From an uncultured Opitutales bacterium (GTDB lineage Bacteria > Verrucomicrobiota > Verrucomicrobiia > Opitutales > CAYWEO01), in NCBI GenBank assembly GCA_964457855.1, contig CAYWEO010000006.1, forward strand, positions 1 to 61,912: a stretch of DNA of 61,912 bases. Direction: 5' to 3'. Below, piece after piece: positions 1,866 through 61,053 of this stretch. Position 1 is the first letter of the stretch; every line of letters begins with the position of its first letter. Position numbers and translations under genes: made by a program. The notes beneath the pieces were generated by a model. It was not told the origin of the DNA, searched no databases, and saw only the letters and a list, made by a program, of their open reading frames with translations.

Positions 1866-2185
1866 TTCGAAAACTTTTCTTATCCCGAGAAAAGAAATGG
1901 GACATCGAGCATGGCATCTCTTTCGAGCGGCGGGTGCGTTGCGCATCGGATCGCAAATTGCTTACGTATTTCTTATATACGCGCGCAATTTGCGCTCTCG
2001 CGCGCCTGCCCGTCATCTCGAAATAGGAGCCACGCTCGACGTCCCAACGTTTCCGAACCTTCAAAAGAAAAGCGATATCGGAAGGCATTTTTCCGGCACT
2101 ATGTGCCAGAAAAATGCCTTCCGAATAGGAGTTTTTTTGGAAAGGGTCCGGGAAAACCTATTTTTGTAAAAAATGGTTTTCCCGG
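1866..2185 (-). repeat. Tripartite hairpin mosaic, order H3-H2-H1 on the + strand, with H3 interrupted by L element copy L1
   Basis: H3 pieces lie at 1866-1898 and 2046-2057, H2 at 2078-2124 and H1 at 2148-2185. The conserved linkers CCTTCAAAAGAAAAGCGATA and ATAGGAGTTTTTTTGGAAAGGGT are present. Confidence 0.85.
1899..2045 (+). repeat. L element copy L1 (subfamily LC, about 147 nt long imperfect hairpin)
   Basis: The outer stem GGGACATCGAGCATGGCATCTCTTTCGAG pairs with CTCGAAATAGGAGCCACGCTCGACGTCCC. The basal loop is CGG opposite TCAT. The apex is GCAAATTGC-TTA-CGTAT..ATACG-CGC-GCAATTTGC. Confidence 0.85.
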
Positions 2186-3446: not shown

Positions 3447-3476
3447 ATGTGAGGAGGGAAGGAGGGGATGGTTTTT

Positions 3477-3588
3477 CCGGAGAACCATTTTTTTGCAAAA
3501 AATTGGTTCTCCGGACCTCTCCAAAAAAAACTCTTATTCGAAAAGCATTTTTGCTGCAAGCAAAAATGCCTTTCGATATTTTTCCGAA
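3477..3588 (+). repeat. Tripartite hairpin mosaic, H1-H2 plus an H3 remnant
   Basis: H1 at 3477-3514 is CCGGAGAACCATTTTTTTGCAAAAAATTGGTTCTCCGG. H2 at 3538-3576 is TCGAAAAGCATTTTTGCTGCAAGCAAAAATGCCTTTCGA. A remnant TTTTTCCGAA follows. Confidence 0.85.
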
Positions 3589-3652: not shown

Positions 3653-3726
3653 GCGGGCGTAGTTTAATGGTAAAACGCCAGCCTTCCAAGCTGGACTCGT
3701 GGGTTCGATTCCCTCCGCCCGCACCA
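3653..3726 (+). tRNA. tRNA-Gly (anticodon UCC), CCA encoded
   Basis: The cloverleaf was folded by hand. The acceptor is GCGGGCG/CGCCCGC, the anticodon arm is CCAGC-CUUCCAA-GCUGG, the T loop is UUCGAUU, and the 3' end is ACCA. Confidence 0.9.
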
Positions 3727-4964: not shown

Positions 4965-5023
4965 GAGAAAAAGGTTGCCGAACCCTCCAAAGAAAAGCGG
5001 TATTTTTACCCTTTTGGTAAAAA
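4965..5023 (-). repeat. Degenerate remnant of the tripartite mosaic (H3 half, linker, short hairpin)
   Basis: GAGAAAAAGGTTGCCGAA is followed by the linker CCCTCCAAAGAAAAGCGGTA and then the hairpin TTTTTACCCTTTTGGTAAAAA. Confidence 0.6.
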
Positions 5024-9159: not shown

Positions 9160-9162
9160 GTA

Positions 9163-9332
9163 TTCGGAAACTTTTCTTTTCCAGAGAAAAGAAGAAGTTT
9201 CCGAACCTTCAAAAGAAAAGCATATCGGAAGGCATTTTTTAGGCACGTAGTGCCACAAAAATGCCTTCCGAACGAGAGTTTTTTCAGGGGAGGTCCGGAG
9301 GGGGTTGTTTTTGCAAAAAATACCCCCTCCGG
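9163..9332 (-). repeat. Complete tripartite hairpin mosaic (H3-H2-H1 on the + strand)
   Basis: H3 lies at 9163-9205, H2 at 9225-9271 and H1 at 9295-9332. It fills the mreD-mrdA spacer. Confidence 0.9.
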
Positions 9333-9369
9333 AAATTTAACAACTGCATAACCTACCCAGCCTACGACC

Positions 9370-11238: not shown

Positions 11239-11310
11239 AGTATTCCGGAGGGGGTATTTTTTGCAAAAACAACCCCCTCGCAGTCTCCCCTGAAAAAACT
11301 CTTATTTGAC

Positions 11311-11434
11311 ACCGTAGCGATTTCGAGCGCTAGGGTTCCGTTACAGGAAAATTCCAACCCCATCACGTACGTTAGTACGCTCAGGGGTTAAAATTTTCCC
11401 GTAGCCGTCCCTATCATCTCGAACTTACTACGGT
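11311..11434 (+). repeat. L element copy L2 (subfamily LA)
   Basis: Sequence by helix: ACCGTAGCGATTTCGAG-CGC-TAGGG-TTCCG-TTACAGG...CC-ATCA-CGTAC-GTTA-GTACG-CTCA-GG...CCGTAG-CCGT-CCCTA-TCAT-CTCGAACTTACTACGGT. Confidence 0.9.
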
Positions 11435-11523
11435 GCCACACTTGAAGCTTCGGGAAAACTCCCCTTTTTTTGCTCAGCATGAGCAAAAAATATCGCTTTT
11501 CTTTGGAGGGTGCGGGAACCGTT

Positions 11524-11667
11524 GGGACCTCGGGCGTGGCTTCTCTTTCGAGATGATAGGCAGGCGACCAAGGTCGCAAATTGCGCGCGTATTGTAATAC
11601 GTAAGCAATTTGAGATCCGATGGGCAACGCACCTAGCGCTCGAAATAGATGCTACGCACGTGGTTCC
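11524..11667 (-). repeat. L element copy L3 (subfamily LC, opposite orientation)
   Basis: Reads GAG-ATGA-TAGG...GCAAATTGC-GCG-CGTAT-TGTA-ATACG-TAA-GCAATTTG...CCTA-GCG-CTC, with a 29-nt outer stem related to that of L1. Confidence 0.85.
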
Positions 11668-11784
11668 ATTCTTTTCTGATGATAAGAAAGTTTTCCGAAT
11701 TAGCTTTCCTTCTTCCCCTCCTCTAAAAACACGATTGACAGTGGGGGTAATTTATGGCTTCTTTATGAGTTTTCACCAAAAAGT

Positions 11785-14321: not shown

Positions 14322-15689
14322 ATGCAAGTGGAGGAATGCATGCAAAATCGTGAGGCTTTAGAGGCTTTTTTGTACAGTTTGAGGCATCTTGGGGGCAGAT
14401 GTGCGCTCGACGGCATGGAAAGGCTCATGCGAGCTTTAGGGGATCCGCAAAAGCGTTACTTGGCCATTCACGTTGCTGGGACGAATGGAAAGGGGTCTGT
14501 TTGCGCGTTTTTGGAGTCCATTTATCGCCATGCGAGTTATAAGGTGGGCATGTACACCTCTCCGCATCTTGTTGCTATAGAAGAACGGATTCAAGTTAAT
14601 CGCGAACTCATTCCATGGGAACGACTAGCGTTGTATTGCCAAAAAATACAAAAAACTGTGGACGAGAACGGTTTAGAGACCCCATCGTTTTTCGAGTGGA
14701 TGACGGCAATCGCGTTTTTATATTTTGCCGACGAAGCCGTTGATATAGCGATCATTGAGGTCGGGATTGGGGGGCGCTTGGATGCCACGAATATCCTGGA
14801 TCCGGCGATTTCAGTGATCACGTCCATCGGATTGGATCATGTGGAGCTTTTAGGAAACACGACACGGGAAATTGCTCAGGAAAAGGGTGGAATTATTAAA
14901 CCTTGGAAACCCGTCGTATTGGGCAACCTAGATGAGGAATCTGAGGGAGTCATTCGTAAAATGGCGCAATCAATCAAGAGCACTGTACACACTGTCTACG
15001 AACGCTTTGGAGATGATATCGACGATTATCCAGTCGCATCTTTAGAGGGTGACCACCAACGTGAAAATGCTGCTGTTGCGCGATTAACGTGCGAAGTTCT
15101 ACGCAATCAGGTGTTTATCGGTGACGATGCTATCGAAAATGGTCTGAAAAATACGCTTTGGGACGGTCGTTGGCAGAGAATTTCCCTAAAAAATTCCGTA
15201 AAACTCATTTTGGACGGAACACACAACGAGTTGGGAATGATCTACTTAGAGCAATTGCTTAAAAAATGGACAAAACACCATCACGAAAAGCTAGTCATTA
15301 TTGTAGGCGTCCTTGGCGAGTTTCGTGCAAAGAGTTTGATCCCAAAGTTAGCGAAATACGCCAATGAGTTCATCTTCGTGCAGCCTAACAGCGAAAAGGC
15401 CCTAGACGGCAGCGCCTTACGAACATTGATTCCTCCTTACTTTAAAGGCAACGTTCGCGACGGTAACGTCGCTGAATTGTTTTCATCAAAAGGCTTCTTA
15501 GCCAACCCACACGAACCCATAACCGTCCTCGTTACGGGGTCTCTCTATCTCGTTGGCGACGTATTGACGGCCTTGATTTTGAGCGGCGAGTTCGTTGCGC
15601 ATCGGATCTTGATGCCATCACGTTTCCGGGAAACCCCCTTTTTTATAAAAAAGGGGGTTTCCCGGACCCTTCCGCCAAAAAACTCTTAA
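14322..15689 (+). CDS. folC: Folylpolyglutamate synthase / dihydrofolate synthase
   Basis: Carries the Mur-ligase P-loop HVAGTNGKGS and the FolC end motif VTGSLYLVGDVL. About 36 extra C-terminal codons and the stop are encoded by repeats L4, H1 and the linker. Confidence 0.9.
   Translation: MQVEECMQNREALEAFLYSLRHLGGRCALDGMERLMRALGDPQKRYLAIHVAGTNGKGSVCAFLESIYRHASYKVGMYTSPHLVAIEERIQVNRELIPWERLALYCQKIQKTVDENGLETPSFFEWMTAIAFLYFADEAVDIAIIEVGIGGRLDATNILDPAISVITSIGLDHVELLGNTTREIAQEKGGIIKPWKPVVLGNLDEESEGVIRKMAQSIKSTVHTVYERFGDDIDDYPVASLEGDHQRENAAVARLTCEVLRNQVFIGDDAIENGLKNTLWDGRWQRISLKNSVKLILDGTHNELGMIYLEQLLKKWTKHHHEKLVIIVGVLGEFRAKSLIPKLAKYANEFIFVQPNSEKALDGSALRTLIPPYFKGNVRDGNVAELFSSKGFLANPHEPITVLVTGSLYLVGDVLTALILSGEFVAHRILMPSRFRETPFFIKKGVSRTLPPKNS
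15574..15621 (+). repeat. L element copy L4 (truncated; 5' half only)
   Basis: GATTTTGAG-CGG-CGAG-TTCGTT-GCGC-ATCGGATCTTGATGCC-ATCACG is then cut off by H1. Confidence 0.8.
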
Positions 15690-15798
15690 TTCGGAAGGCA
15701 TTTTTTGGCACTTAGTGCCAAAAAATGCCTTCCGATATGACTTTTCTTTGAAAGGTTCGGAAAACGTTTCTTTTCTTCTGAAAAGAAACGTTTTCCGA
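15625..15798 (+). repeat. Complete tripartite hairpin mosaic (H1-H2-H3), a near-canonical copy
   Basis: H1 lies at 15625-15664, H2 at 15690-15734 and H3 at 15755-15798. All three are near-perfect palindromes. Confidence 0.92.
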
Positions 15799-15817
15799 AT
15801 ATTCCTTCCTCCCCCAA

Positions 15818-16604: not shown

Positions 16605-16740
16605 CAGACAGTGCCGATTTTGAGATAACGAGCAGGCGCGTGATAATTTTAACCCCCGAGCGTACTGTAGTACGTGACGGGGTTGAAATTTGAGCGCAAC
16701 GAACTCGCCGCTCAAAATCGGCACTGTCTGGAGGCAAGGT
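16605..16740 (-). repeat. L element copy L5 (LB-type base, LA-type apex) with a perfect 20-bp outer stem
   Basis: CAGACAGTGCCGATTTTGAG pairs with CTCAAAATCGGCACTGTCTG. The basal loop is ATAA opposite CCG. An LC-like arm fragment lies at 16561-16582. The right arm supplies the last 5 codons and the stop of exbD. Confidence 0.88.
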
Positions 16741-20812: not shown

Positions 20813-22528
20813 ATGAAATGGGTTTGTCGGCAAGTTTCCGAGACGGCGGTTAAGGCTTTGCAAGAGGCTCTCTCGATTTCGGAGACCCTCGCGTGTCTCT
20901 TGGTCGAAAATTCGATTACGGATCCCGAGGAAGCCGCTTCATTTTTGAATCCCCGTTTGGCGTATTTAAAGGATCCCCTCATCATTCATGGCCTTTCGGA
21001 AGTCGTTGATCGCCTATTTCAGGCGCGCGAAAAGAAGGAAAAAGTCGTTGTTCTTGGCGATTATGACGTCGACGGTTTGACGAGCGTTGCGCTAATGACG
21101 CTTATTTTGCGCCAGCTGGACATCGATGTTACGTATTTTGTTCCCAATCGTTTTGATGACGGTTATGGCTTATCGCGCTCGGTTGTAGAGAAAATCCTTA
21201 AAGAAATGGTTCCCAACGTCTTCATTGCGCTGGATTGCGGGACGAATTCTTTGAGCGAAATCGAATTATTGCAACGTCACAATGTCGATGTCATTGTCGT
21301 CGATCATCATAGCAACAGTTGCGGAGAATTACCGAAGTGCTTGATAGTCAATCCACACGCGTATCCCGACATCGACACCGCAGATGCACGTAGATTGTGT
21401 TCCGTCGGTCTCGTGTTCAAGTTGGCTCATGGGATTTTAAAGAAGCTGAAAACGATCAACCCCGAGTTGGCTTATCGCATAAAATTGAGGGAATATTTGG
21501 ATCTCGTTGCCATGGGTACCGTTGCGGATCTCGTTCCCTTGCAAGGAGATAACAGGATTTTGACAAAGTTCGGCCTCGAGCTGCTTCCCGAAAGTCATTT
21601 GCCCGGCGTAAAAGCTCTCATCAAGGTGGCCGGTCTGCAGGACGGTCAGAAATTGATACCGGGCGACATTTCCTTTAAATTGGCGCCAAGAATCAACGTC
21701 AGCGGTCGGATTTCTGATGCGCATCTTCCGCTAAAAATGCTTCTGAGTGAGCAGTTTAGCGAAGCGTTTGGATGGGCTAAGGAGTTGGATATTTTGAACA
21801 AGAAGCGGCAATTCATTGAGCAGCAAATCGTTGAAGAAGCTTTGGGCATGATTGACCTGAAAGACATTCCCGCGGGTGTCGTTTTGTACTCGGAAAAATG
21901 GCATTCCGGCGTCGTAGGCATTGTTGCCGGCAAATTAGCCAAGCAATTCAACCGCCCAGTAGTCATTCTTGGCAGAGAGGGACACGTCGTCAAAGGGTCT
22001 GCGCGAGGGACCGGATTGTTCAATTTGGTCGGTATTTTGACCAAATGCAAGGATTTGCTCGAAACGTGGGGTGGGCATCCGCAAGCCGTTGGAGTGTCGC
22101 TACTTCCGGAGAATTTGGAGGCTTTTCGAGCGCAGTTCAGTCTCGCAGTCACCAAGCAGGGCGGTACTTCTGAACATACAGACATTGAGCTGCCGATTTC
22201 CCGCACGCTTTCTGTCGATGACGTTACCATGCAACTTTTCGACGAAATGGAAGTCATGCAACCCTTCGGCATTGGCAATCCGCAACCCGTTTTCGTCATT
22301 GAACACGTCATTTTACAGAAACCCGTCGAACTCTTCGGCGAAAATCGCGAACACGTCCGCTTTAAACTCAGCCTACCTGCAAGCGAATCCACTGGCGTCG
22401 TTGGCTGGAGGTTGCGTGACCCCTCCCTCCCCATCCACCAACCCGTCAGCCTAGCCGTCAAACTCTCCTGGAATTACTGGAACAGCCGCCGCTACCCGCA
22501 GCTAGAACTACTCGACTGGGCGCCGTAG
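20813..22528 (+). CDS. recJ: Single-stranded-DNA-specific exonuclease RecJ
   Basis: Carries the DHH motifs GDYDVDGLTS, DCG and VVDHH plus a DHHA1 region. The last three codons and the stop lie in the outer stem of L6. Confidence 0.9.
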   Translation: MKWVCRQVSETAVKALQEALSISETLACLLVENSITDPEEAASFLNPRLAYLKDPLIIHGLSEVVDRLFQAREKKEKVVVLGDYDVDGLTSVALMTLILRQLDIDVTYFVPNRFDDGYGLSRSVVEKILKEMVPNVFIALDCGTNSLSEIELLQRHNVDVIVVDHHSNSCGELPKCLIVNPHAYPDIDTADARRLCSVGLVFKLAHGILKKLKTINPELAYRIKLREYLDLVAMGTVADLVPLQGDNRILTKFGLELLPESHLPGVKALIKVAGLQDGQKLIPGDISFKLAPRINVSGRISDAHLPLKMLLSEQFSEAFGWAKELDILNKKRQFIEQQIVEEALGMIDLKDIPAGVVLYSEKWHSGVVGIVAGKLAKQFNRPVVILGREGHVVKGSARGTGLFNLVGILTKCKDLLETWGGHPQAVGVSLLPENLEAFRAQFSLAVTKQGGTSEHTDIELPISRTLSVDDVTMQLFDEMEVMQPFGIGNPQPVFVIEHVILQKPVELFGENREHVRFKLSLPASESTGVVGWRLRDPSLPIHQPVSLAVKLSWNYWNSRRYPQLELLDWAP

Positions 22529-22648
22529 TGATTTCGAGCGCTAGGGTTCCGTTACAAAAAGAATTTAATCCCATCACGTACTACAGTACGCTCAGGAATT
22601 AAATTTTTTTGTAGCCGTCCCTATCATCTCGAACTGACTACGGCGCCC
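22518..22648 (+). repeat. L element copy L6 (subfamily LA)
   Basis: Sequence by helix: GGGCGCCGTAGTGATTTCGAG-CGC-TAGGG-TTCCG-TTACA...CC-ATCA-CGTAC-TACA-GTACG-CTCA-GG...TGTAG-CCGT-CCCTA-TCAT-CTCGAACTGACTACGGCGCCC. Confidence 0.92.
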
Positions 22649-22676
22649 AATCGAGTAAAGGTTACGAAACAACACC

Positions 22677-22783
22677 TAGGAAGGCATTTTGCGGGCACGA
22701 AGTGCCAAAAAATGCCTTCCGAATAAGAGTTTTTTTGGAAAGGGTCCGGGAAAACCAATTTTTGCAAAAAATGGTTTTCCCGG
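22677..22783 (-). repeat. Partial tripartite mosaic (H2-H1 on the + strand)
   Basis: H2 lies at 22677-22722, followed by the linker ATAAGAGTTTTTTTGGAAAGGGT and H1 at 22746-22783. Confidence 0.88.
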
Positions 22784-22811
22784 TTACAACTCTTATGTTA
22801 TACTACCGATC

Positions 22812-25253
22812 ATGTTAAGCAAAGCTTGGTGGACGGGGTGGGGTGGTGGGATGGTGTGTTTGGAGGCGGATTGTGAGGGGGCGTTGCCGTGTTTTTCGTT
22901 GGGGGATGGCGGTGAGGTGGTTGAGGTTAAGCGAGCGGATCCGTGGGAGTTTGGGGCGCATGGGGGGTGTTTTATTGAGGGTAAGGATGTTTATTTCACG
23001 CTGAGTCGTGGGAATTTCCCCGAGTTGGTGGGGATTTCGGGATCTGGGAATGAAGGGGATGCGGACGCGTTTTACGTGGCAGGAAATTTCAATGATTGGG
23101 GGGCAGCCGTTGGGAAAGGCGAATGGAGGTTGATGCCAAAGGAAGTCAATGGGCGGCAATATCTGGCGTTGCGTGTGCCGGTGGAAAATCTTTTAAAATT
23201 TGGCGATGGAGTGAATTTTAAATTCGTGTCTGAGAGGTATTGTTGGTTAAATGCTCCGGAGGGGGGGGCGAATGGCGTAGCAGATGGCTTGGGAGGTCGC
23301 AATTTTCATCTCAGTTTTCGAAGAAGCGGGCGTCATGCGTTCAAATTTGAGGTTCAGTCGCCCGTTGATATCTGGGCAGAGCAGCGGCTCGTTTTGCATA
23401 GGAATGATGGTATAACTGAGTCTTTAGTCATTGATTATGAGCGATTTTTGCTCTCATTGCGGTCGTCAAAGCCATTGGGAGCAATCGTTGAAGGAGATCA
23501 AACAACATTCCGGCTGTTTGCGCCGAGAGCGGAGCGGGTGGGCGTTGCAGTTTTTAAGGTAGCGGAAACGGAAAGCGACCGAATTGAACTTCCATTGCAG
23601 CGTTCCGAAGACGGTGTTTGGGAGGGAAAGTATCCCAAAAATCTTGACGGATTCCGCTATTATTACACTGTCACAAGTGCTTGCAAGGGAGTGGATTCGC
23701 ATTTTGATGATCGGGTGAAAATTCTGGATCCCTACGCCCTAGCAACCGTGAGCCGTGAGGGGCCTGGAATCATTTTGGATTCGAAAAAGTTCCAAAATTT
23801 TGAGCAAAACGATCCCTTCGTTTCGCCAGCCTTACAGGATCTGGTTATAATGGAGTGCCACGTGCGCGATTTGTTGAATAAAGTGCCGGATTTGGCCGAT
23901 TCTGAGCGCCTGGGGTTTGTGGGACTGACGCGCTGGTTACGGTCATCAAGTACTTGCTATCTTTCGAACCTGGGTATCAATGCCGTTGAGCTGCAGCCAC
24001 TTCAGGATTTTGACAGCGTCAGCAGGGACACATACCATTGGGGTTACATGCCGATCAATTACTTTTGTCCGGCAAGGGATTACGCGACGCAGCCCGAAAA
24101 AGTGTCGCAAATCGTTGAATTGCAAGACTGTGTGAAGGCCTTCCATGAGCGAGGAATCGCCGTGATCGTGGATGTCGTTTACAACCACGTTGGAGATCCC
24201 AAACCACTGTTATGCATCGATAAGCGGTACTATTTTCATTGCATGCCAGAGGGGAAATTGACGAATTGGAGTGGCTGCGGCAACGACTTACGGACGCAGT
24301 CCCCCATGGTGCGTCGGTTGATTTTGGATAGCCTCCTCTATTGGGTAAAAACATTCCATGTGGACGGATTTCGTTTCGATTTGGCAGAGCTTTTAGGGAA
24401 AGAGCTTTTGTGCGAGATCGAGCGCGAGTTGCGAAAAGTAAGGCCTGGGATCATTTTGATCGCCGAACCCTGGAGTTTTCGTGCACACATGGGGATTTCG
24501 TTAAAAGATACTGAATTTTCCGTTTGGAACGACGGCTATCGCGATTTTGTCGCTCAATATGTCTGCGAAAAAGGGAATTCTGCCGGAATCCAATACTTTT
24601 TAGGTGGTTCCATCAAGCACTTAACGCGTTTCCCGACCCAAACGATCAACTACACCGAATCGCACGATGACCGCTGCTGGATCGACAAAATGACCGAGCG
24701 CTCTCACAATCGTGGAGACGCCTGGACAAAGCTGGATCGCCAGCGTACACACCTCATGTTCTCGATTTTATTCGCGTCGCTCGGCATTCCCATGATCGCC
24801 GCTGGTCAAGATTTCCTCAAATCCAAACACGGTGTCTCCAATACCTACCAAAACGGTGCACTCAACGCGCTCGACTACCTGCAAATTTTCCAATGCCCCT
24901 CCACTCACGACTACGTAAAAAATTGGATCGCGTTCCGTAAGTCGCTAATAGGTGGTCTTTTGCGCCTAGACAAACGCCCTTCAGATGGCTACCTAACGTT
25001 CTTCGAAGTCCCCGGAAAATCCTCCATCGGCGCCCTCTTTAACGCCGATCACTCTCTCGGCCCCCAACAAATCCTTTACGCCGTCAACCCTCACCACCAG
25101 GCCGTCTCTCTCCACCTCCCCGGCATCAATCCCGCAAACTTCACCCAAATCGCTGACCACGAACACTTCTCTCCAACAACCCCCTTCCCCTGGACGGCAG
25201 GTGCGTTGCACCTGCCGCCCGTCTCCTGCGGCCTGTTGACAAGGGTTTTATAA
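22812..25253 (+). CDS. GH13 alpha-1,6-glucosidase (pullulanase or glycogen-debranching type)
   Basis: Carries the GH13 regions DVVYNHV, GFRFDLA, AEPW and YTESHDD. The start was trimmed to the ATG at 22812 because upstream codons only read through H2/H1. Confidence 0.85.
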   Translation: MLSKAWWTGWGGGMVCLEADCEGALPCFSLGDGGEVVEVKRADPWEFGAHGGCFIEGKDVYFTLSRGNFPELVGISGSGNEGDADAFYVAGNFNDWGAAVGKGEWRLMPKEVNGRQYLALRVPVENLLKFGDGVNFKFVSERYCWLNAPEGGANGVADGLGGRNFHLSFRRSGRHAFKFEVQSPVDIWAEQRLVLHRNDGITESLVIDYERFLLSLRSSKPLGAIVEGDQTTFRLFAPRAERVGVAVFKVAETESDRIELPLQRSEDGVWEGKYPKNLDGFRYYYTVTSACKGVDSHFDDRVKILDPYALATVSREGPGIILDSKKFQNFEQNDPFVSPALQDLVIMECHVRDLLNKVPDLADSERLGFVGLTRWLRSSSTCYLSNLGINAVELQPLQDFDSVSRDTYHWGYMPINYFCPARDYATQPEKVSQIVELQDCVKAFHERGIAVIVDVVYNHVGDPKPLLCIDKRYYFHCMPEGKLTNWSGCGNDLRTQSPMVRRLILDSLLYWVKTFHVDGFRFDLAELLGKELLCEIERELRKVRPGIILIAEPWSFRAHMGISLKDTEFSVWNDGYRDFVAQYVCEKGNSAGIQYFLGGSIKHLTRFPTQTINYTESHDDRCWIDKMTERSHNRGDAWTKLDRQRTHLMFSILFASLGIPMIAAGQDFLKSKHGVSNTYQNGALNALDYLQIFQCPSTHDYVKNWIAFRKSLIGGLLRLDKRPSDGYLTFFEVPGKSSIGALFNADHSLGPQQILYAVNPHHQAVSLHLPGINPANFTQIADHEHFSPTTPFPWTAGALHLPPVSCGLLTRVL

Positions 25254-25256
25254 ATA

Positions 25257-25452
25257 TTCGGAAACTTTTCTTTTCAGAAGAAAAGAAGAAGTTTCCGAAC
25301 CTTCAAAAGAAAAGTCATATCGGAAGGCATTTTTTGGCACTCCGTGCCATAAAAATGCCTTCCGAACGAGAGTTTTTAAGGGGGAGGCCCGGAGGGGGTG
25401 CTTTTTGCAAAAAACACCCCCTCAGGGAAAAAGCACTTTGGCCCCCCTCCGG
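25257..25452 (-). repeat. Complete tripartite mosaic (H3-H2-H1) plus an extra H1 arm fragment
   Basis: H3 lies at 25257-25299, H2 at 25320-25365 and H1 at 25389-25426. An additional CCCCCCTCCGG arm lies at 25442-25452. Confidence 0.9.
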
Positions 25453-26536: not shown

Positions 26537-27283
26537 ATGAGAGTTTTTTGGACATTGTGCAAACACGAGATGAAAAGCGTGCTGTTGAGTCCCGCATTTT
26601 ACGTGACGACGATGCTGTTCCTGTTGCTCATGGGTGGGTCTTACCTGTTGATTTTGATGGACTTTCTTGGGCATGAACAAGATGTTTTGCCGTCGATTGT
26701 GTTTTTTAAGTTTTTTTGGCTGCCACTGTTTTTCATGATTCCTCTTTTGACGATGCGGAGCTTTGCCGAGAGCAAGCAGTTGGGCATTTTGGAGTCTTTG
26801 CGGGCGACTCCCGCGTCGATGGGGGGGATCGTTTGGGCAAAATTCCTTTCTGCGTACGTATTTTACCTGTTTTTATGGGGGTTAACGCTCACATTTCCGT
26901 TTATCGTCAAATATTCCTTATCGACGGGCGCTGTGGATTCGCGCATCCTTGACGTAGGGTCTTGGGCCGGAGGATTTTTGTTTATCGCACTGAGCGGATT
27001 CTCCTTTATCGCGCTGGGCATTTTTACGAGTAGTTTAACGAAAAGTCAGCTGATTGCTGGGATTTTGTGCTTCTGTTTCCTCTTTGTGATTGTGGTTGGA
27101 GGGCGTGCATTGGTCGAGTGGCCCTTAATTCCAAACGGCGACATGCAGGGCTATTTTCAGGTATTTGACCATTTGGACGAGTTTAGTCGTGGGATGATCG
27201 ACACGCGTCCGTTTGTATTTTACATCAGTTTGGGCGTGTTGATTCTTCAGACAACAACAATTCTTTTGGAGGCCAATGATTAA
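26537..27283 (+). CDS. ABC-2 type permease (GldF-like)
   Basis: A six-TM protein lying immediately after the ATPase. Confidence 0.75.
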   Translation: MRVFWTLCKHEMKSVLLSPAFYVTTMLFLLLMGGSYLLILMDFLGHEQDVLPSIVFFKFFWLPLFFMIPLLTMRSFAESKQLGILESLRATPASMGGIVWAKFLSAYVFYLFLWGLTLTFPFIVKYSLSTGAVDSRILDVGSWAGGFLFIALSGFSFIALGIFTSSLTKSQLIAGILCFCFLFVIVVGGRALVEWPLIPNGDMQGYFQVFDHLDEFSRGMIDTRPFVFYISLGVLILQTTTILLEAND

Positions 27284-28769
27284 GAAACTTAAAGAGCACA
27301 ACGATTTTAAGTGGGTCCGTTGGTGGTCAAATGGCAATCGTTTTGTTCAGTTGATGCTCATCGTTGGCTTGCTGATCGGCTGTAACGTGTTGTCATTTCG
27401 TTACTATACGCGTAAGGATTTGACGGCGAATGGACGGTATTCGTTGAGTCCAGAAACTGTGGCGCATTTAAAACAAATCAAAAAGCAGCCCATCAATATC
27501 GTTGTGATTGGCGCTTGGCATTCGACCCAAGCGGGAGTAAAGACGTTTTACGAGGATGTCCGGCATTTGCTGAAAGAATTTGCCTATTGGGGACAGAAAG
27601 AGGCCGACTTGCCCTTAACCATTGAGTATGTGGATGTTTTTTTGCAGCGGAAACGCGTCGATGAGCTCGTTCAGCAGTATGGAGTGCAGAAGGAAAACGT
27701 TGTCATTGTCGCAAGCGGTGAGAAATTCCACTTGCTGGAGGCGGCAGATTTTTACATTTCCAACCGACAAAAAGTTGTTCAATTCCAAGGGGAAAACGTC
27801 CTAATGCGAGCCTTGCTGGACGTCGTTAGCGAAAAGAAGGTCAAAGTTTATTTTACCGATGGCCATGGAGAAATGGATCCTTTCAGCGCGGATGCGGTGC
27901 CTGGCTTGAGTCAGGTGCAAGAATGCCTCACACAGAGGAACTTAGCGGTTGAAAAGGTGAATCTTTTGTCGTCAAAAACGGTTCCCAGCGATTGCAATTT
28001 GCTCATCATTGCGGGTCCGCGGAAAGCGTTTTTGCCCGAGGAGGAGGAGGTTGTCAGGCGATTTGTTGAGGAAAGGCAGGGGCATTTGCTTGTGCTGCTC
28101 AATGCGATGACTCAGCACGGCCTCGATAACGTCTTTTTTGACTGCGGGATTTTGGCGGCGGATCGCGTCGTCGTCGATCCGGAAACGCGCAATAAAACGG
28201 TCCATGGAGACCTCATTGTGAAACGTTATGCGCAGCATCCCATCACGCAGATGTTGCTGGACACGCAGTTACCGACGTTGATGGGCCTTTGCCGGCCGAT
28301 TAGTGTAGACATCGGAGCCAATGCCGTTTCAGGGCGTTCCATTGTGCCGTTATTGTTCACAACTGACACTAGTTTTGCGAAAAAGCGTTATCAGGCGCTC
28401 GGAACTGCGTTAACCTTTGATCCTGAGGTGGATGTTAAAGGGCCCTTGCCGTTAGTTGTCTTGAGTGAGAAAACAACAAGCAATAAGTTGGGCTTAGCGA
28501 TTCCTGGAGAACGGGTTTTAGTGTTTGGCAACGCACAATTCATCGGAAATCGTCAAATCGGTGCTCTTGGGAACAAGTTGTTGCTCTTGAACAGCATGCA
28601 TTGGCTTTTAGAGGAAGTGTATCCCTTTCATGTCGCTCCGAAATCATTAACGGTTTTTCAGATGCAAGTTAGCAAGCGTGATTTGCTGTTGGCAGGTACG
28701 CACTTACTGATTTTACCTTTGATCTTAGGTGCGATGGGGATTTTTGTTTGTTTTCTACGGAGACGTTGA
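27276..28769 (+). CDS. ABC transporter auxiliary component (GldG-like)
   Basis: Has N- and C-terminal TM anchors. Carries the motifs NGRYSLSPETVAHLKQIKKQPINIVVI and YFTDGHGE, typical of the GldG/ABC_transp_aux family. It overlaps the permease gene by 8 nt. Confidence 0.72.
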   Translation: MIKKLKEHNDFKWVRWWSNGNRFVQLMLIVGLLIGCNVLSFRYYTRKDLTANGRYSLSPETVAHLKQIKKQPINIVVIGAWHSTQAGVKTFYEDVRHLLKEFAYWGQKEADLPLTIEYVDVFLQRKRVDELVQQYGVQKENVVIVASGEKFHLLEAADFYISNRQKVVQFQGENVLMRALLDVVSEKKVKVYFTDGHGEMDPFSADAVPGLSQVQECLTQRNLAVEKVNLLSSKTVPSDCNLLIIAGPRKAFLPEEEEVVRRFVEERQGHLLVLLNAMTQHGLDNVFFDCGILAADRVVVDPETRNKTVHGDLIVKRYAQHPITQMLLDTQLPTLMGLCRPISVDIGANAVSGRSIVPLLFTTDTSFAKKRYQALGTALTFDPEVDVKGPLPLVVLSEKTTSNKLGLAIPGERVLVFGNAQFIGNRQIGALGNKLLLLNSMHWLLEEVYPFHVAPKSLTVFQMQVSKRDLLLAGTHLLILPLILGAMGIFVCFLRRR

Positions 28770-28772
28770 ATT

Positions 28773-30602
28773 ATGCGGAGTTTAAAATTAACGGTTATTT
28801 TGTTGTGCCTGAACGGGATCGTGTTCAGCGCGATTTATTATTTCGAACACAAAACGCGAGAAGTGTCGACTTATAACGGAATTTTGAATTCTGGCATCAA
28901 GGAAGTGACTTTTCTTAAAGTATCTTCTAAGGGAACGAGTTACACATTGCAAGCAAGCGGAGATGGAGCTTGGGAGATGGCGTCTCCCGTTCAATGGCCA
29001 GCAAATCCCTTTGCGGTTCAAAAGATTTTGTCTCAATTGCAATTTCTGACGAAAAGTATCTCATTCCCCGTCAAAGAGTTAAAGGAAAAAGAACATGCCT
29101 TATCCGATTACGGTCTGGATCGGCCGGTCATCAGTGTGCAGTTTGGAGACAAAACGACGACAAAAGTGATTCATTTGGGGCAGTCCACGCAGGTCGGTGG
29201 GCATTTTTACGCGCTGGATCCCGCAAAAGAGAATATTTTGGTTGTCGATCAATTGTTTGTGGATGCGCTTTCTCAAGGTGTGGGGGATTTTATGGAGCGG
29301 CATGTTTTCCAAATTCCTCCATTTGAAGTGAAGTCGTTGAATATTAAGGCTGTTGACAATGTTGTGTTGTCTCTCGGAAAGAAAGAATCCGGCTGGCACA
29401 TGGAAGTTCCCATTCAAGTGCGCGTGAATGAGGACATGTTAAACACTCTTTTGGGTCAAATCACAAATACGTCCGTGGAGCGTTTTGTGGACGAAAAAGA
29501 GATTGATTTGGTGAAGTTTGGGTTGATGATTCCGCAAATAAAGTTGCAGGTTAAGGGCAATAAACGCGACGAAATTTTGTGGATCGGAAGCCCTGTCAGT
29601 GATGGAGTTAAGGAACCAACAGAGTGTTTTGCAAAGCTGGAAACGCGTCCAAGTGTATTCGTGATCAAAAATGGTTTGGTGGAGCATTTAAAGGACGGCC
29701 AAAGTCTTTTGCGCGAAAAAAAGCTCCTGTTTTTCGACAAAACGCACATTCTCGGGATCGAAATTGTGCGCGATCATAAGAAAATCACGTTACAAAAATT
29801 AGAAACTGGAAAGTGGCAAGTGCTTTATCCGGAGAATGGGAAAATGGAGTTCCTTCATGCCGATGATCGTGTGATTAATAGGCTATTTACGACGCTGGAA
29901 GATTTTCGAGCAGAACAGTTTGTGAACGATGCACCGTCGGCCGCAGATGTCCACAAATTCGGATTAGACAAGCCCAGTTGCGTGATTCGCTTATTCAATC
30001 ACGATGAAAAAAGTCTTTCTCTCGCAGAGGGTTCTGATGGTGGTTTGTACGCTAGGGTACAAGAGGAGCCTTTTGTCTACAAAGTTTCGAAAGCGTTTTT
30101 AGATCAATTCCCCTTGCAACCTTTTTATTACAGCGAGCGCGTTGTGTGGGATTTGCCTCAGGAGTCGGTTGTAGAAAGCATTGCCCTTCAAGATCTTAAG
30201 GACGGAAAACAGTTGTGGAATTTTTCTACCAGCAACCCAAAAGAAACGACTGATAACCATGAAAGCAGTCAAGATACTGCATTTAAAACCCATTTGTTGC
30301 AGACTATCAAACACTTAGACGTTGCTGAGGTGTTAGGTGTTTTTCATGAAAATGGGTACTTGTATGAGCAAAAGCAGTTGCATTGGAGGTATTTGCTGAA
30401 GGTAACCTATTTGGTGGAAAATGCTGTTGGGCAAGAGGAACATCGCGAAGAAGCACTTTACTTGACGGAACATTTTGGAGGCGATTTGCAAATAGGGGGT
30501 GTACGTGGTAAACGATTGGTATTCAAGCTTTCTAAGGATTGGATTGCGAATTTTATAAAATTGCTCGAAAGCACGGGTAAACCATTATCGACCAACAATT
30601 AA
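28773..30602 (+). CDS. N-terminally anchored periplasmic protein, DUF4340-like by position
   Basis: Has a single N-terminal TM segment. It occupies the slot after GldG that DUF4340 proteins usually occupy. The assignment rests on context only. Confidence 0.5.
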   Translation: MRSLKLTVILLCLNGIVFSAIYYFEHKTREVSTYNGILNSGIKEVTFLKVSSKGTSYTLQASGDGAWEMASPVQWPANPFAVQKILSQLQFLTKSISFPVKELKEKEHALSDYGLDRPVISVQFGDKTTTKVIHLGQSTQVGGHFYALDPAKENILVVDQLFVDALSQGVGDFMERHVFQIPPFEVKSLNIKAVDNVVLSLGKKESGWHMEVPIQVRVNEDMLNTLLGQITNTSVERFVDEKEIDLVKFGLMIPQIKLQVKGNKRDEILWIGSPVSDGVKEPTECFAKLETRPSVFVIKNGLVEHLKDGQSLLREKKLLFFDKTHILGIEIVRDHKKITLQKLETGKWQVLYPENGKMEFLHADDRVINRLFTTLEDFRAEQFVNDAPSAADVHKFGLDKPSCVIRLFNHDEKSLSLAEGSDGGLYARVQEEPFVYKVSKAFLDQFPLQPFYYSERVVWDLPQESVVESIALQDLKDGKQLWNFSTSNPKETTDNHESSQDTAFKTHLLQTIKHLDVAEVLGVFHENGYLYEQKQLHWRYLLKVTYLVENAVGQEEHREEALYLTEHFGGDLQIGGVRGKRLVFKLSKDWIANFIKLLESTGKPLSTNN

Positions 30603-30620
30603 AGACATTTTTAGGTTTCG

Positions 30621-33299: not shown

Positions 33300-33367
33300 A
33301 AATTGGCTTTCGTTGGCCATTTTGGCCCATACAACCATTCAGCATAACCATCCACAATCTATATTCT

Positions 33368-37787: not shown

Positions 37788-37936
37788 AAACCGTGCGAGG
37801 ACGTAGCGATTTCGAGCGCTAAGGTTCCGTTACAGAAGAAACTGAACCCCATCACGCATTTTAATGCGCTCAGGGGATTCAGTTTCTTCCGTAGCCGTCC
37901 TTATCATCTCGAACTTGCTACGTCCTCGCACGGTTT
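37788..37936 (+). repeat. L element copy L7 (LA variant with compensatory stem changes)
   Basis: The outer stem AAACCGTGCGAGGACGTAGCGATTTCGAG pairs with CTCGAACTTGCTACGTCCTCGCACGGTTT. P2 is TAAGG/CCTTA and the apical stem is CGCAT/ATGCG. The loops CGC, TCAT, ATCA and CTCA are unchanged. Confidence 0.9.
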
Positions 37937-37937
37937 T

Positions 37938-38073
37938 CCACCCTAAAAACTCTTAAATGCGGAAGGCATTTTTGATTGGCACTATAGTGCCAATCAAAAA
38001 TGCCTTCCGATACCGCTTTTCTTTGGAGGGTTCGGGAACCTTTTCTGTTCTCGCGAACAGAAAGGTTCCCGAA
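37938..38073 (+). repeat. Partial tripartite mosaic (linker-H2-linker-H3)
   Basis: H2 at 37959-38010 has a 3-bp-longer inner stem, GATTGGCAC/GTGCCAATC. H3 lies at 38031-38073. Confidence 0.88.
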
Positions 38074-38089
38074 ATTCCCTCTCCCAAAA

Positions 38090-38522
38090 ATACTTTGAAG
38101 CAGTTATAAGCCGGATTCTGTATATCGTTTCTAACGCGATACTACGTCCATTTATCTAGCAAAAGTTGCCCTTTGCTCCCTTCCCTTTGGAGGGGTGCGG
38201 CGTACCCGAAATCGATGAGCGGGCCGCTCGATTCCCTATTTCGCCTTGCACCGGATTGGGTTTTCAATGCCTTTGCGATTACTCACAAAGCGGGGAGCTC
38301 TTACCTCTCCTTTTCACCTTTTCTTAACGTGTTGATTATCACTAACTAACGCGCAAAGTAGTTTATTTTCTGTTGCACTTTCCGTAACCTTGGGATATTG
38401 CCCAAAGTTCCCTCATTTTTCATGAGGAATCCTGCCCTGTGGTGTCCGGACTTTCCTCTATGTTTTAGATGTTCCTTGCGAAAAATCACCCAACACAGCG
38501 AACGCACACTGCTTCAAAGCAC
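38090..38522 (-). ncRNA. rnpB: RNase P RNA, bacterial type A
   Basis: The reverse strand carries GAGGAAAGUCCGGACACC, ACGGAAAGUGCAACAGAAAAUA, GGUAAGAGCUC, AGAUAAAUGG and ACAGAAUCCGGCUUAUAA. P1 is formed by CUUUGAAGCAG (38519-38509) pairing with CUGCUUCAAAG (38103-38093). The region is ORF-free. Confidence 0.9.
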
Positions 38523-39941: not shown

Positions 39942-40057
39942 TGCGGAAACCATTTCTTTTCAGAAGAAAAGAAACGTGTTTCCGCGCCTTCCAAAGAAAA
40001 GTCGTATCAAAAGGCATCTTCATTTGGCCTTACAGGCCAAATGAAGATGCCTTTTGA
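39942..40057 (-). repeat. Partial tripartite mosaic (H3-linker-H2 on the + strand)
   Basis: H3 lies at 39942-39986. H2 at 40007-40057 has a divergent but self-complementary stem, AAAAGGCATCTTCATTTGGCC/GGCCAAATGAAGATGCCTTTT. Confidence 0.85.
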
Positions 40058-40140
40058 ATTAAAAGTTGTTAATGGGGAACGGCCCTGGAAATCACCTTTC
40101 GCCTTTAAACCGGCCTTGCTGATAAAAATGGCGTTGAGTG

Positions 40141-40258
40141 CGTCGATTTCGAGATGATAGGGACGGCTACAAAAAAATTTAATTCCTGAGCGTACTGTAG
40201 TACGTGATGGGATTAAATTTCTTTGTAACGGAACCCTAGCGCTCGAAATCGCTACGCA
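40141..40258 (-). repeat. L element copy L8 (subfamily LA, opposite orientation)
   Basis: Sequence by helix: GAG-ATGA-TAGGG-ACGG-CTACA...CC-TGAG-CGTAC-TGTA-GTACG-TGAT-GG...GTAAC-GGAA-CCCTA-GCG-CTC. The apex is nearly identical to the reverse complement of L6. Confidence 0.9.
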
Positions 40259-41605: not shown

Positions 41606-41773
41606 CCGGAGGGGGTATTTTTTGCAAAAACAACCCCCTCCGGACCTCCCCCGAAAAAACTCTCATTCGGAAGGCATTTTTTTGCCATGCTGGCGAAAAA
41701 ATGCCTTCCGATACCGCTTTTCTTTGGAGGGTTCGGGAACCTTTTGTTTTCATGGAAAACAAAGGTTCCCGAA
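41606..41773 (+). repeat. Complete tripartite mosaic (H1-H2-H3)
   Basis: H1 lies at 41606-41643, H2 at 41667-41711 and H3 at 41732-41773. The H2 loop contains the in-frame ATG at 41687. Confidence 0.9.
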
Positions 41774-49123: not shown

Positions 49124-49149
49124 AATACATTACACTTTTTGATTAAATT

Positions 49150-51894: not shown

Positions 51895-51996
51895 TCACCG
51901 TTTAATGAAGGTAAATCATCCATGATTTGTGAGCCCTTTGTCAAGGATTTATGATGGTTGTCATAAATTTTCCCCGCTGTGTTGGGTAGTTTTTTT

Positions 51997-52168
51997 CCGG
52001 GAAACCCCCTTTTTTATAAAAAAGGGGGTTTCCCGGACCCTTCCCCCTAAAAATTTTTATTCGGAAGGCATTTTTATGGCACGTAGTGCCAAAAAATGCC
52101 TTCCGATATGCTTTTCTTTTGAAGGTTCGGAAACTTCTTCTTTTCTCTGGAAAAGAAAAGTTTCCGAA
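51997..52168 (+). repeat. Complete tripartite mosaic (H1-H2-H3)
   Basis: H1 lies at 51997-52036, H2 at 52061-52106 and H3 at 52126-52168. Confidence 0.92.
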
Positions 52169-52186
52169 AAAATTCCCCCTCTCCTC

Positions 52187-52996: not shown

Positions 52997-53004
52997 GATA
53001 AAAT

Positions 53005-53136
53005 TTCGGGAACCTTTCTGTTCCGCGAACAGAAAAGGTTCCCGAACCCTCCAAAGAAAAGCGGTATCCCCCATAAAAATTTTTAGGGGGAAGGGTCCGT
53101 GAAACCCCCTTTTTTATAAAAAAGGGGGTTTCACGG
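53005..53136 (-). repeat. Tripartite mosaic lacking H2 (H3-linkers-H1 on the + strand)
   Basis: H3 lies at 53005-53046. Both linkers are present and directly abutting. H1 at 53097-53136 carries a compensatory pair, CCGTGAAA...TTTCACGG. Confidence 0.88.
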
Positions 53137-54894: not shown

Positions 54895-54942
54895 AAAACA
54901 AACGGTAATCGTAGGAGACGTTGGTAGTGGAGCAATTAAAAA

Positions 54943-55170
54943 TTCGGAAAACTTTCTTTTCAGAAGAAAAGAAACGTTTTCCGAACCTTTCAAAGAAAAG
55001 TCATATCGAAAGGCATTTTTGTTCGGACTTATGGTCCGAACAAAAATGCCTTTCGAATTGAGAGTTTTTAAGGGGGAGGTCCGGAGGGGGTGCTTTTTGC
55101 AAAAAACACCCCCTCCGGCAGGTAAGCACCCCGGGAAACCCACTTTTTTATAAAAAAGTGGGTTTCCCGG
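54943..55170 (-). repeat. Tripartite mosaic with duplicated H1 (H3-H2-H1b-H1a on the + strand)
   Basis: H3 lies at 54943-54985. H2 at 55006-55056 has the inner stem GTTCGGAC/GTCCGAAC. One H1 lies at 55081-55118 and a second H1 at 55131-55170. Confidence 0.9.
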
Positions 55171-56963: not shown

Positions 56964-56968
56964 TTTTT

Positions 56969-57142
56969 CCGGGAAACCCCCTTTTTTATAAAAAAGCGGG
57001 TTTCCCGGACCCTTCTCACTAAAAATTTTCGTTCGGAAGGCATTTTTTCAGCACGTAGTGCTAAAAAAATGCCTTCCGATACCGCTTTTCTTTTGAAGGT
57101 TCGGAAACTTTTTCTTTTCTCGTGAAAAGAAAAGTTTCCGAA
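56969..57142 (+). repeat. Complete tripartite mosaic (H1-H2-H3)
   Basis: H1 lies at 56969-57008, H2 at 57032-57079 and H3 at 57100-57142. Confidence 0.92.
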
Positions 57143-58070: not shown

Positions 58071-58238
58071 CCTGGAAAACCATTTTTTGCAAAAATTAGT
58101 TTTCCAGGGCCCTTTCCAAAAAAACTCTCGTTTCGGAAGGCATTTTTTGGCACGTAGTGCCAGAAAAATGCCTTCCGATATGCTTTTCTTTGAAGGGTCC
58201 GGGAAACTTTCTTTTCGAAGAAAAGAAAGTTTCCCGGA
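58071..58238 (+). repeat. Complete tripartite mosaic (H1-H2-H3) inside the atpD-atpC spacer
   Basis: H1 at 58071-58108 has CCTGG...CCAGG ends. H2 lies at 58132-58178 and H3 at 58198-58238. Confidence 0.9.
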
Positions 58239-59814: not shown

Positions 59815-59840
59815 TCGTAAGATTTGTTAAAAATAAGGTA

Positions 59841-59946
59841 TTGGAAGGCATTTTTGGGCCTGCAAGGCATAAAAATGCCTTCCGAATAAGAGTTTTTTTG
59901 GAAAGGGTCCGGGAAAACCAATTTTTGCAAAAAATGGTTTTTCCGG
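59841..59946 (-). repeat. Partial tripartite mosaic (H2-H1 on the + strand) in the atpG-atpD spacer
   Basis: H2 at 59841-59885 has a degenerate inner stem. It is followed by the linker ATAAGAGTTTTTTTGGAAAGGGT and H1 at 59909-59946. Confidence 0.85.
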
Positions 59947-61017: not shown

Positions 61018-61053
61018 GGAAAACTTTATCTTTGTAAAGAATGGGTTTCCCGG
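61018..61053. repeat. Degenerate solitary H1-like hairpin
   Basis: GGAAAACTTTATCTTTGTAAAGAATGGGTTTCCCGG is an imperfect palindrome with an H1-type 3' arm. Confidence 0.5.

Follow-up and report, generated by a model that had tools for sequence, protein, structure and literature searches.

The contig CAYWEO010000006.1 of an uncultured Opitutales bacterium (assembly GCA_964457855.1), analysed over 61,912 nt and hereafter called the window, carries a repeat unit of ~175 nt, named A, in which three long hairpins (H1, H2 and H3) are joined by two linkers. There are 17 clear loci and one degenerate remnant of it. The A copies descend from one oriented element, modules recombine between them, and the units decay by deletion and are hit by a second palindrome family, B. 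Unit A is probably a lineage-specific, non-coding and non-autonomous dispersed repeat of the class that comprises repetitive extragenic palindromic (REP) sequences, bacterial interspersed mosaic elements (BIMEs) and BOX elements. Its sequence family is novel; its kind, the non-autonomous intergenic palindromic mosaic, is already known.

Architecture of unit A

Alignment of the oriented copies gives the layout H1, linker 1, H2, linker 2, H3, and this order is kept in every oriented copy, the hairpins forming a mosaic with the conserved linkers. A first-pass annotation of the same DNA had described three palindromes and two non-palindromic linkers at 15625-15799, which are present in the sequence exactly so. 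Stems are 17-24 bp long in hairpins of 38-54 nt, many of them perfect, and the predicted RNA fold of the index unit (15625-15799) consists of three perfect hairpins (-103 kcal/mol, z = -15.3). An unbiased hairpin scan of the 61.9 kb returned 32 strong hairpins, almost all of the H1, H2 or H3 types. The H2 arm TTCGGAAGGCATTTTT has 25 matches with at most 2 mismatches (~13 hairpins), compared to 0.22 expected (0 of 100 shuffles), while 12 matches to the H1a arm were observed versus 2.0 expected by chance and 5 to the H3 arm versus 0.07.

Sub-variants of H1 had been noted before and do exist, but they are better described as three subtypes (a, CCGGGAAACCCCC-T6ATAA6-; b, CCGGAGGGGGT-; c, CCGGGAAAACC-), each paired with its own subtype of linker 1. 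H2 has conserved outer arms of 16 nt around a core that is variable yet always self-complementary, H3 occurs as several subtypes, and linker 2 (GCTTTTCTTTGRAGG, ~14 occurrences) sets the orientation of each copy. The feet of all three hairpins are TCCGG/TTCGG, and a common pattern runs through them (TYCGGRAA, a few bases, a T-run, the loop, an A-run and TTYCCGRA); going by this resemblance, H1, H2 and H3 may be diverged copies of one ancestral hairpin.

Similarity between copies ends sharply at the base of H1 and at the base of H3. Beyond these points there is a compositional trend only, the left flank being G-rich and the right one forming a C/T-rich tail (e.g. TTCCTTCCTCCCCC or CCCCTACCTTCC) that follows H3 in most copies; a CCYTCCCC motif in linker 1, 3' of H1, resembles this tail. 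Pairing of linker 1 (CCTCC) with linker 2 (GGAGG) was rejected by eye, because the linker subtypes do not covary.

Copies in the window

All 18 positions listed in the first-pass annotation contain family sequence (Table 1). They comprise nine full units, two that are full but split, five partial ones, one fragment and the remnant, i.e. about one copy per 3.4 kb. The copy at 3476 retains the last 9 nt of H3 and is therefore an internal deletion, which corrects the earlier description, and the point at which a B3 palindrome entered the left arm of H3 is identical in the copies at 11244 and 1866. In a self-comparison of the window, A and B together make up 22 repeat intervals with a total of 4,152 nt (6.7%). 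By tabulation, repeats fill ~20 of the roughly 29 spacers of at least 50 nt, and those that are repeat-free are mostly short; the two families account for nearly all long spacers, those of essential operons included.

Evidence for insertion

The closest AtpD homologues are 77-81% identical to that of the window and belong to organisms named Verrucomicrobia, Opitutales or Puniceicoccales; no relative closer than ~81% was found, an exact-match search with the AtpD of the window gave no entry, and a search with the AtpD locus in a collection of 185,579 genomes gave, among the matches listed, ~65-69% identity in many phyla, which is uninformative for taxonomy. In the closest relatives, chosen for comparison of the atp operon at 80-81% AtpD identity, the atpA-atpG spacer measures 15-25 nt (~350 nt here), the atpG-atpD spacer 26-40 nt (~290 nt here) and the atpD-atpC spacer 24-70 nt (212 nt here). 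Every atp spacer of the window is filled by A and/or B units, while no copy of either family is present in the relatives' loci, and fetched loci totalling 2.26 Mb yielded nothing real in nhmmer searches with profiles of A and B. Strong hairpins number 5.2 per 10 kb in the window, 0-1.8 in the relatives and 1.0 in 1.36 Mb of diverse loci, those of the relatives being unique terminators of the A-tract/stem/T-tract form. Because the orthologous atp spacers are short and empty in the relatives, the A copies are insertions.

Units of ~175 nt with A/T-rich flanks, strong folding and intergenic spread could also represent a classical miniature inverted-repeat transposable element (MITE), i.e. a deletion derivative of an insertion sequence (IS) whose terminal inverted repeats (TCCGGGAAAC ... 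GTTTCCGAA) are recognised by a DDE transposase, and it would suit such an origin that the feet of H1 and H3 are alike in inverted orientation and that the internal-deletion derivative at 3476-3586 keeps both ends. However, no target-site duplication is found at the nine full window copies, nor at an extra full copy on the metagenome contigs L191/L192, and the left flanks of these copies are unrelated and share no conserved target. The supposed terminal repeats are just the 8-9 nt common to all three hairpin feet, and the idea of outer terminal repeats or complementary flanks was rejected, since flank complementarity is not above controls (-14.5 kcal/mol vs -13.7 for non-cognate and -14.9 for random flanks). 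Moreover, no IS or DDE transposase is encoded in ~77 kb, and free reassortment of modules is atypical of MITEs, which leaves a MITE a decidedly improbable origin of unit A.

Orientation, covariation and mosaicism

When copies are oriented by their linkers, the extra base of H3 is on the left arm in nine of 11 copies and on the right arm in none, and both the AT/CA mismatch of H1b and the T.T mismatch of H1c stay on a constant arm. The argument of the first-pass annotation, from same-arm asymmetries to one oriented element, is borne out by these three features, and the variant H2 inner stems that it reported at 55006, 40007 and 37959 are correct.

Over 14 copies of H2, 96.6% of cells are paired, and 12 of the 24 pairs have changed on both sides, compared to 3.0±1.4 in 500 shuffles, none of which has as many, and to 1-2 pairs in a control in which the partner column was slid. 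There are 17 double-changed cells in H2 and only 2 G.U cells. Across the nine full units, 19 of 53 predicted pairs are compensated by two-sided changes, G.T and A.C mismatches are balanced in the A copies (6 vs 8), H2 at 37958 has a symmetric insertion in both arms (GAT...ATC), and extra double-sided arm variants occur elsewhere (TCGGCAGGCA/TGCCTGCCGA in contig L193, TCGAAATGCA/TGCATTTCGA in L194). Selection for hairpins had been proposed from the inner stems, and pairing is indeed maintained, but selection is not the sole reading of the covariation, which is explained by a need for Watson-Crick pairing in a folded single strand, or by arm-to-arm correction, at least as well as by stepwise compensation in RNA. 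Intrastrand template switching corrects the arms of quasipalindromes (PMC7202029). Because changes in both arms vastly exceed wobble intermediates, the family is a natural test case for palindrome evolution, in which compensatory selection can be set against arm-to-arm correction.

Modules have been exchanged between copies. The units at ~9162 and ~51996 are 57% identical in H1 and linker 1 compared to 98% in linker 2 and H3, those at ~15625 and ~54941 are 60% and 95% identical in the same segments, and the H1 subtype assorts independently of the linker 2/H3 subtype. The mosaic behaviour claimed earlier holds with respect to this independent assortment and to the deletion derivatives, but most of the copies then taken as interrupted reflect family B, which had been overlooked.

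A second palindrome family

Family B is an imperfect palindrome of 110-150 nt with at least three subtypes, with conserved, partly mismatched segments (GATTTYGAGCG... / ATCACGTAC-N4-GTACGCTCAGG / ...CATCTCRAA) and variable paired ones; the B1 core starts with CGTAG and ends with CTACG. B units sit beside A units and nested within them. Folding shows around every complete B1 or B2 copy an outer stem of 8-17 bp that is complementary and peculiar to that copy. Some of these outer stems resemble native terminators in having A-tract/T-tract flanks, e.g. one in the window (AAACCGTGCGAGGA-(B)-TCCTCGCACGGTTT) and one after a tRNA in L193 (AAACCCGCGAAGAGAGC-(B)-GCTCTCTTCGCGGGTTT), while others are located in the atp operon, in which the relatives lack space for a hairpin. 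Either B targets the apices of hairpins, or the palindrome is extended into the flanking DNA during or after its insertion (an inverted duplication of the flank). REPs inserted in palindromes are known (PMC3733652). If the outer stems arise at insertion, through inverted target duplication, and are not pre-existing terminators, this would be a new outcome of transposition.

It is conceivable, though rather unlikely, that A and B together represent an undescribed hairpin-based mobile system of bacteria of the Planctomycetes-Verrucomicrobia-Chlamydiae superphylum, with untagged long-stemmed palindromes, propagation as folded single strands, B landing at or creating apices, and copying from arm to arm.

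Genomic context and possible effects on transcripts

All A copies lie in spacers or overlap just the last codons of open reading frames (ORFs); 5 are in convergent, 3 in divergent and 9-10 in co-directional spacers, and the repeat blocks at gene 3' ends are all located between -27 and +28 nt of the stop codon. This closeness to stops would be expected of cis-acting RNA cassettes that the host selects and keeps for their function, i.e. for termination, 3' protection or processing by RNase III/E between cistrons. Such cassettes would also account for the very stable RNA fold (-103 kcal/mol, z = -15), for pairing being kept through sequence change, and for the copies in each atp spacer, where differences in stability between mRNA segments could set the ratios of the subunits; moreover, REP, enterobacterial repetitive intergenic consensus (ERIC) and Correia elements affect transcripts in this way (PMC3049150, as background; PMC3733652). 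However, no stem is followed by a U-tract and one A hairpin is terminator-like, with 8 terminator-like sites in the region versus 15.5 in shuffles, i.e. fewer than chance. Both orientations relative to transcription occur (5 copies antisense and 4 sense in co-directional spacers, tabulated from linker orientation), three divergent, promoter-side spacers are occupied (3476, 39942 and 54941), and copies lie within essential operons, where termination would be harmful, while in the relatives spacers of 15-70 nt suffice, together with ordinary terminators of the A-tract/stem/T-tract form. Truncation, deletion or interruption affects many copies, and there is neither an excess of G.U nor a strand bias, as selection at the RNA level would produce. 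Retention of the units for an RNA function is, on this balance, unlikely. Intrinsic terminators in particular were ruled out, given the missing U-tract and the location of copies in divergent spacers and within two operons, atp and mre-pbp2.

The conserved three-hairpin structure, its covariation and its defined orientation could also be thought of as a family of multicopy small RNA (sRNA) genes, in which every unit would be transcribed on its own as a structured sRNA. Against this, Rfam gives no match apart from generic microRNA (miRNA)-precursor models far below their gathering scores, sigma-70-like promoters are at background (10 vs 8.9) with none conserved at the 5' edge of the unit, perfect 20-bp palindromes have the same sequence on either strand, truncated or interrupted copies are numerous, and a density of about one gene per 3.4 kb would be unprecedented, all of which makes sRNA genes a very remote prospect. 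CRISPR arrays, integron attC arrays, pairs of DNA-uptake sequences and an assembly artefact were all dismissed, because of the housekeeping context, the fixed module order and the recurrence in independent metagenomes.

The repeats do change annotated gene ends and create spurious ORFs. The FolC ORF (14322-15689) overruns its domain by ~39 codons, crosses a B half-unit and H1, and has its stop codon (TAA) in linker 1, a dihydrofolate reductase (DHFR)-like ORF (2158-2652) terminates within H1c, and the stops of RecJ and the pullulanase overlap repeat ends. Spurious upstream extension through repeats is seen in the ORFs of TatD (54055-55425), AtpG (59975-60949) and the pullulanase (22689-25253).

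Proposed mode of spread

As a dispersed repeat, unit A would go back to one oriented ancestor of ~175 nt, with three long hairpins and two linkers, whose copies came to lie at many intergenic sites of this genome, with a preference for positions no more than a few bases from gene 3' ends. Its spread would depend on the recognition of folded single-stranded hairpins by an enzyme whose gene lies elsewhere; a Y1/HUH enzyme (a REP-associated tyrosine transposase, RAYT, or an IS200/IS605-like one), or another that makes no duplication, can be put forward tentatively as a candidate. The stems would stay complementary because the hairpin and not its sequence is recognised, and/or because intrastrand template switching corrects one arm against the other. 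After insertion, stems of 17-24 bp would be co-transcribed with the neighbouring genes and probably stabilise 3' ends or offer sites for RNase processing, which would be a by-product and not the cause of their existence.

Several observations weigh against such an assignment. Mobility is inferred, because no mobilising enzyme is present in the 62 kb and ~15 kb of further contigs: the first-pass annotation saw no transposase in the window, which holds for its ~45 ORFs, and none of any type, Y1_Tnp included, is found among these and the 9 ORFs of the extra contigs (~77 kb). No empty-site polymorphism between strains was seen. The feet are without the GTAG/CGTC tag of RAYT-tied REP families, GTAG being weakly enriched 10-28 nt upstream of H1 (5 vs 1.2 expected; 4 of 16 flanks), and there is no conserved target tetranucleotide 5' of the unit. 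With 8 copies on the plus and 9 on the minus strand, in a window of uniformly positive GC skew, the lagging-strand bias of IS608-type elements is not seen, and the stems of 17-24 bp far exceed the 5-13 bp typical of REPs. Finally, no two A copies are identical, and there is therefore no evidence of recent activity.

Since unit A does not behave as a tagged REP, a MITE or a terminator and has no Rfam match, it is placed among the intergenic palindromic mosaics and in no named family. It is a dense, structured example of the REP/BIME/BOX class from a poorly sampled lineage of Verrucomicrobiota, and it shows that palindromic mosaics need not bear the GTAG or CGTC tags by which such repeats are found.

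Comparison with known systems

REPs and BIMEs with their RAYT/TnpAREP enzymes, and REPINs, are known from Enterobacteria and Pseudomonas, the GTAG/CGTC REP super-families include those of Opitutus terrae, and the enzyme is a single-copy gene located elsewhere (PMC3333891, PMC3116915, PMC3733652). Where a Y1 transposase gene (tnpAREP/RAYT) is flanked by the same REPs, the arrangement is called a REPtron. In Opitutus terrae, which belongs to the Verrucomicrobia and thus sets a precedent, several REP families coexist (PMC3733652). A position near gene 3' ends, such as that of the A copies, is reported for REPs (PMC3733652). Like unit A, REPs and BIMEs are high-copy extragenic palindromes, with hairpins in a fixed arrangement and conserved linkers, that lie within ~20 nt of ORF 3' ends, inside operons or between convergent genes and sometimes supply the stop, with several families per genome and no target duplication. 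Unlike A, REPs are tagged with GTAG/CGTC at the foot of the stem, have imperfect stems of 5-13 bp in units of 20-40 bp (near-perfect stems of 17-24 bp in A), and are arranged as alternating Y/Z units, compared to three different hairpins in one order. Each A hairpin is a full palindrome, to which the logic of head-to-head or tail-to-tail dimers is inapplicable.

The second analogue is the BOX element of Streptococcus pneumoniae and S. suis (boxA-boxB(n)-boxC), which in pneumococcus is modular and, together with RUP and SPRITE, co-located and nested, and which has been judged parasitic with slow current movement (PMC3049150). BOX resembles A in being a strongly folded, lineage-restricted composite whose modules keep one order but can be absent or recombined, in its co-location or nesting with other repeats, and in giving rise to spurious ORFs and altered gene ends. 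It differs in that boxA pairs mainly with boxC, whereas each A module folds on itself, and in the tandem amplification of its middle module, which A lacks; the sequences are very probably unrelated and the phylum is another. Membership of A in BOX proper is very unlikely, given this difference in phylum and given that H2 is missing from all 185,579 genomes, so that BOX is an analogue by description.

ERIC sequences (also termed intergenic repeat units, IRU) are imperfect palindromes of ~127 bp in Enterobacteria, and Correia (NEMIS) elements occur in Neisseria. Both are, like A, long intergenic hairpin repeats; they are co-transcribed with genes and are targets of RNase E or RNase III. Both are closest to family B, a single imperfect palindrome of 110-150 nt, although they are without B's copy-specific outer stems. 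What sets them apart from A is the presence of 26-bp terminal repeats and of TA duplications in Correia elements, and of one palindrome instead of three in ERIC.

Non-autonomous elements derived from IS200/IS605 have subterminal hairpins, no terminal repeats and no duplication (PMC6006769). With A they share different hairpins at the left and right ends and the lack of terminal inverted repeats and of a duplication, and by analogy the bulged base on one arm of A could mark the active strand in the IS200/IS605 fashion. On the other hand, A has no conserved tetra- or pentanucleotide target 5' of its left end, no replication-strand bias (8 vs 9) and a third, central hairpin, and no tnpA or tnpB remnants accompany its copies among the ORFs of the window and the extra contigs.

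Occurrence outside the window

The exact H2 hairpin has 0 hits in the 185,579 species-representative reference genomes, the relaxed H2 core gave 103 loci in JGI metagenome contigs, all of them single unrelated hairpins, and blastn against the PLSDB plasmids found no match. In Rfam 15, only RNase P RNA and two tRNAs pass the gathering scores in the window, and at permissive E-values nothing is added except generic hairpin models of miRNA precursors, far below gathering. The first-pass annotation called the repeat undescribed, and in agreement with this there is no match in Rfam, the reference genomes, JGI or PLSDB; what is new is the sequence family, but its kind was already well known from REP/BIME, BOX and ERIC.

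Because gene callers often call spurious ORFs across repeats, translations of the unit were used as protein probes, and these recovered 11 proteins that represent further copies. They lie in JGI samples 3300045131, 3300044990, 3300077323, 3300077324 and 3300019788, on one ENA contig and on NCBI contigs of 11, 69 and 185 kb. Neighbours of these further A and B units include dnaA, pyrH/frr, tpiA/pgk, a pyruvate phosphate dikinase (PPDK) gene and a tRNA, and the contigs examined have 40-52% G+C, most of them close to the 47% of the window. Apparently these copies are other loci of the same organism, in at least five other metagenomes. Occurring at other loci and in independent samples, the family is therefore genome-wide in this organism and recurrent.

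Several of the metagenome contigs start or end within an A or B unit (L190 1-86, L194 1-115, L195 1-92, L196 1-97 and L191 1-105), and it follows that the repeats fragment short-read assemblies. On contig L189, positions 834-1184 match the window at 100% and 1-833 are unrelated to it; 834-1006 are identical to the unit at 51996..52168, and the identity runs from the first base of H1 through truA. The left flank of L189 is joined, on the 11-kb NCBI contig, to a unit with a different H3 subtype. The junction in L189 is probably an assembly join via the common H1a-linker 1-H2 segment, a real recombinant being the other possibility.

Table 1. Positions of A and B units, C/T-rich tails and structural RNA genes; positions refer to the window unless a contig is named
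Feature	Position	Strand	Remarks
Index A unit, full, H1a type	15625..15799	+	H1a 15625-15666; linker 1 15667-15689; H2 15690-15736; linker 2 15737-15755; H3 15756-15799
Full A unit, H1b type	9162..9334	-	between mreD-like ORF and pbp2; antisense to transcription
Full A unit, H1b type	25256..25427	-	starts 3 nt past pullulanase stop at 25253
Diverged full A unit	39942..40100	-	divergent xseA/dus spacer; H2 arms TCAAAAGGCATCTTC / GAAGATGCCTTTTGA
Full A unit, H1b type, linker 2/H3 type iii	41606..41773	+	24 nt past dus stop
Full A unit, H1a type	51996..52168	+	between tRNA-Glu and truA 3' end
Full A unit, H1b type	54941..55118	-	divergent tatD/pfp spacer; H2 inner stem GTTCGGAC/GTCCGAAC
Solo H1a hairpin	55131..55170		12 nt from unit 54941..55118
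Full A unit, H1a type	56968..57142	+	between convergent pfp and thioesterase genes
Full A unit, H1c type	58071..58238	+	atpD-atpC spacer; antisense to operon
Split A unit, H1c type	1866..2185	-	B3 palindrome 1900-2045 inside H3 left arm after ...AAACGTT
Doubly split A unit, H1b type	11244..11699	+	B1 11312-11437 after linker 1; B3 11524-11667 in H3 left arm
Internal-deletion derivative of A	3476..3586	+	H1 variant, linker 1, H2 variant, last 9 nt of H3 TTTTCCGAA
Partial A unit (H1c, linker 1, H2 only)	22677..22783	-	B1 22509-22657 in place of linker 2 and H3
Partial A unit (linker 1, H2, linker 2, H3)	37937..38074	+	H2 inner stem GATTGGCAC/GTGCCAATC; B1 unit 37788-37936 in place of H1
Partial A unit (H1a, linker 1, linker 2, H3)	53004..53136	-	H2 replaced by GGGG
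Partial A unit (H1c, linker 1, H2)	59840..59946	-	atpG-atpD spacer; sense to operon; adjoins B2 59692-59810
A fragment (linker 2, H3 left arm)	4966..5007	-	
Degenerate H1-like remnant (...ATGGGTTTCCCGG)	61018..61053		atpA-atpG spacer, between two inverted B2 units
C/T-rich tails after H3	15800-15815, 41774-41800, 52169-52190, 57143-57170, 11700-11725, 38075-38090		
B representative	22509..22657		long imperfect palindrome (B1)
Other B copies in window	11312-11437, 37788-37936, 40148-40256, 16615-16720, 59692-59810, 60877-60990, 61083-61213		
B half copy	15564-15623		
B3 copies	1900-2045, 11524-11667		
B copies on other contigs	L191 1-105; L193 1027-1140 and 1348-1420; L194 1489-1594		
B copies with outer stems	22509-22657, 37788-37936, 16615-16720, 59692-59810, 60877-60990, 61083-61213; L193 1012-1157		
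RNase P RNA, class A	38091-38517	-	218.9 bits
tRNA-Gly(TCC)	3653-3726	+	
tRNA-Glu(CTC)	51820-51894	-	

Other features of the window

The genes of the window are housekeeping ones, encoding or named acyl-CoA ligase, thyA, mreBC, pbp2, accD, folC, exbBD, yajC, secDF, recJ, pullulanase, accBC, RNase P RNA (class A), xseA, dus, gidB, ruvC, truA, tatD and atpAGDC, and a pyrophosphate (PPi)-dependent phosphofructokinase is encoded as well. The ORF called at 51017-51898 runs across tRNA-Glu and is over-extended. Tightly packed operons between 25.5 and 37.8 kb carry no repeats; among them is a repeat-free 11-kb operon (26537-33299) for an ABC transporter and auxiliary proteins (ABC_transp_aux, DUF4340), which includes an 892-aa protein with a faint match to YhdP at most.

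The stretch 48000-50400 has a low G+C content (39.5% vs ~47%), adjoins a repeat-free convergent spacer of 342 nt, and may be foreign DNA. Its two minus-strand ORFs (48593-49123 and 49150-50307) have no convincing Pfam match, the sole hit, on 49150-50307, being far below threshold (E = 0.028). Leucine-rich-repeat proteins are encoded at 33296-34636 of the window and at 799-1362 of L190, another contig of apparently the same organism, and, speculatively, these proteins and the proliferation of repeats may hint at a host-associated lifestyle.

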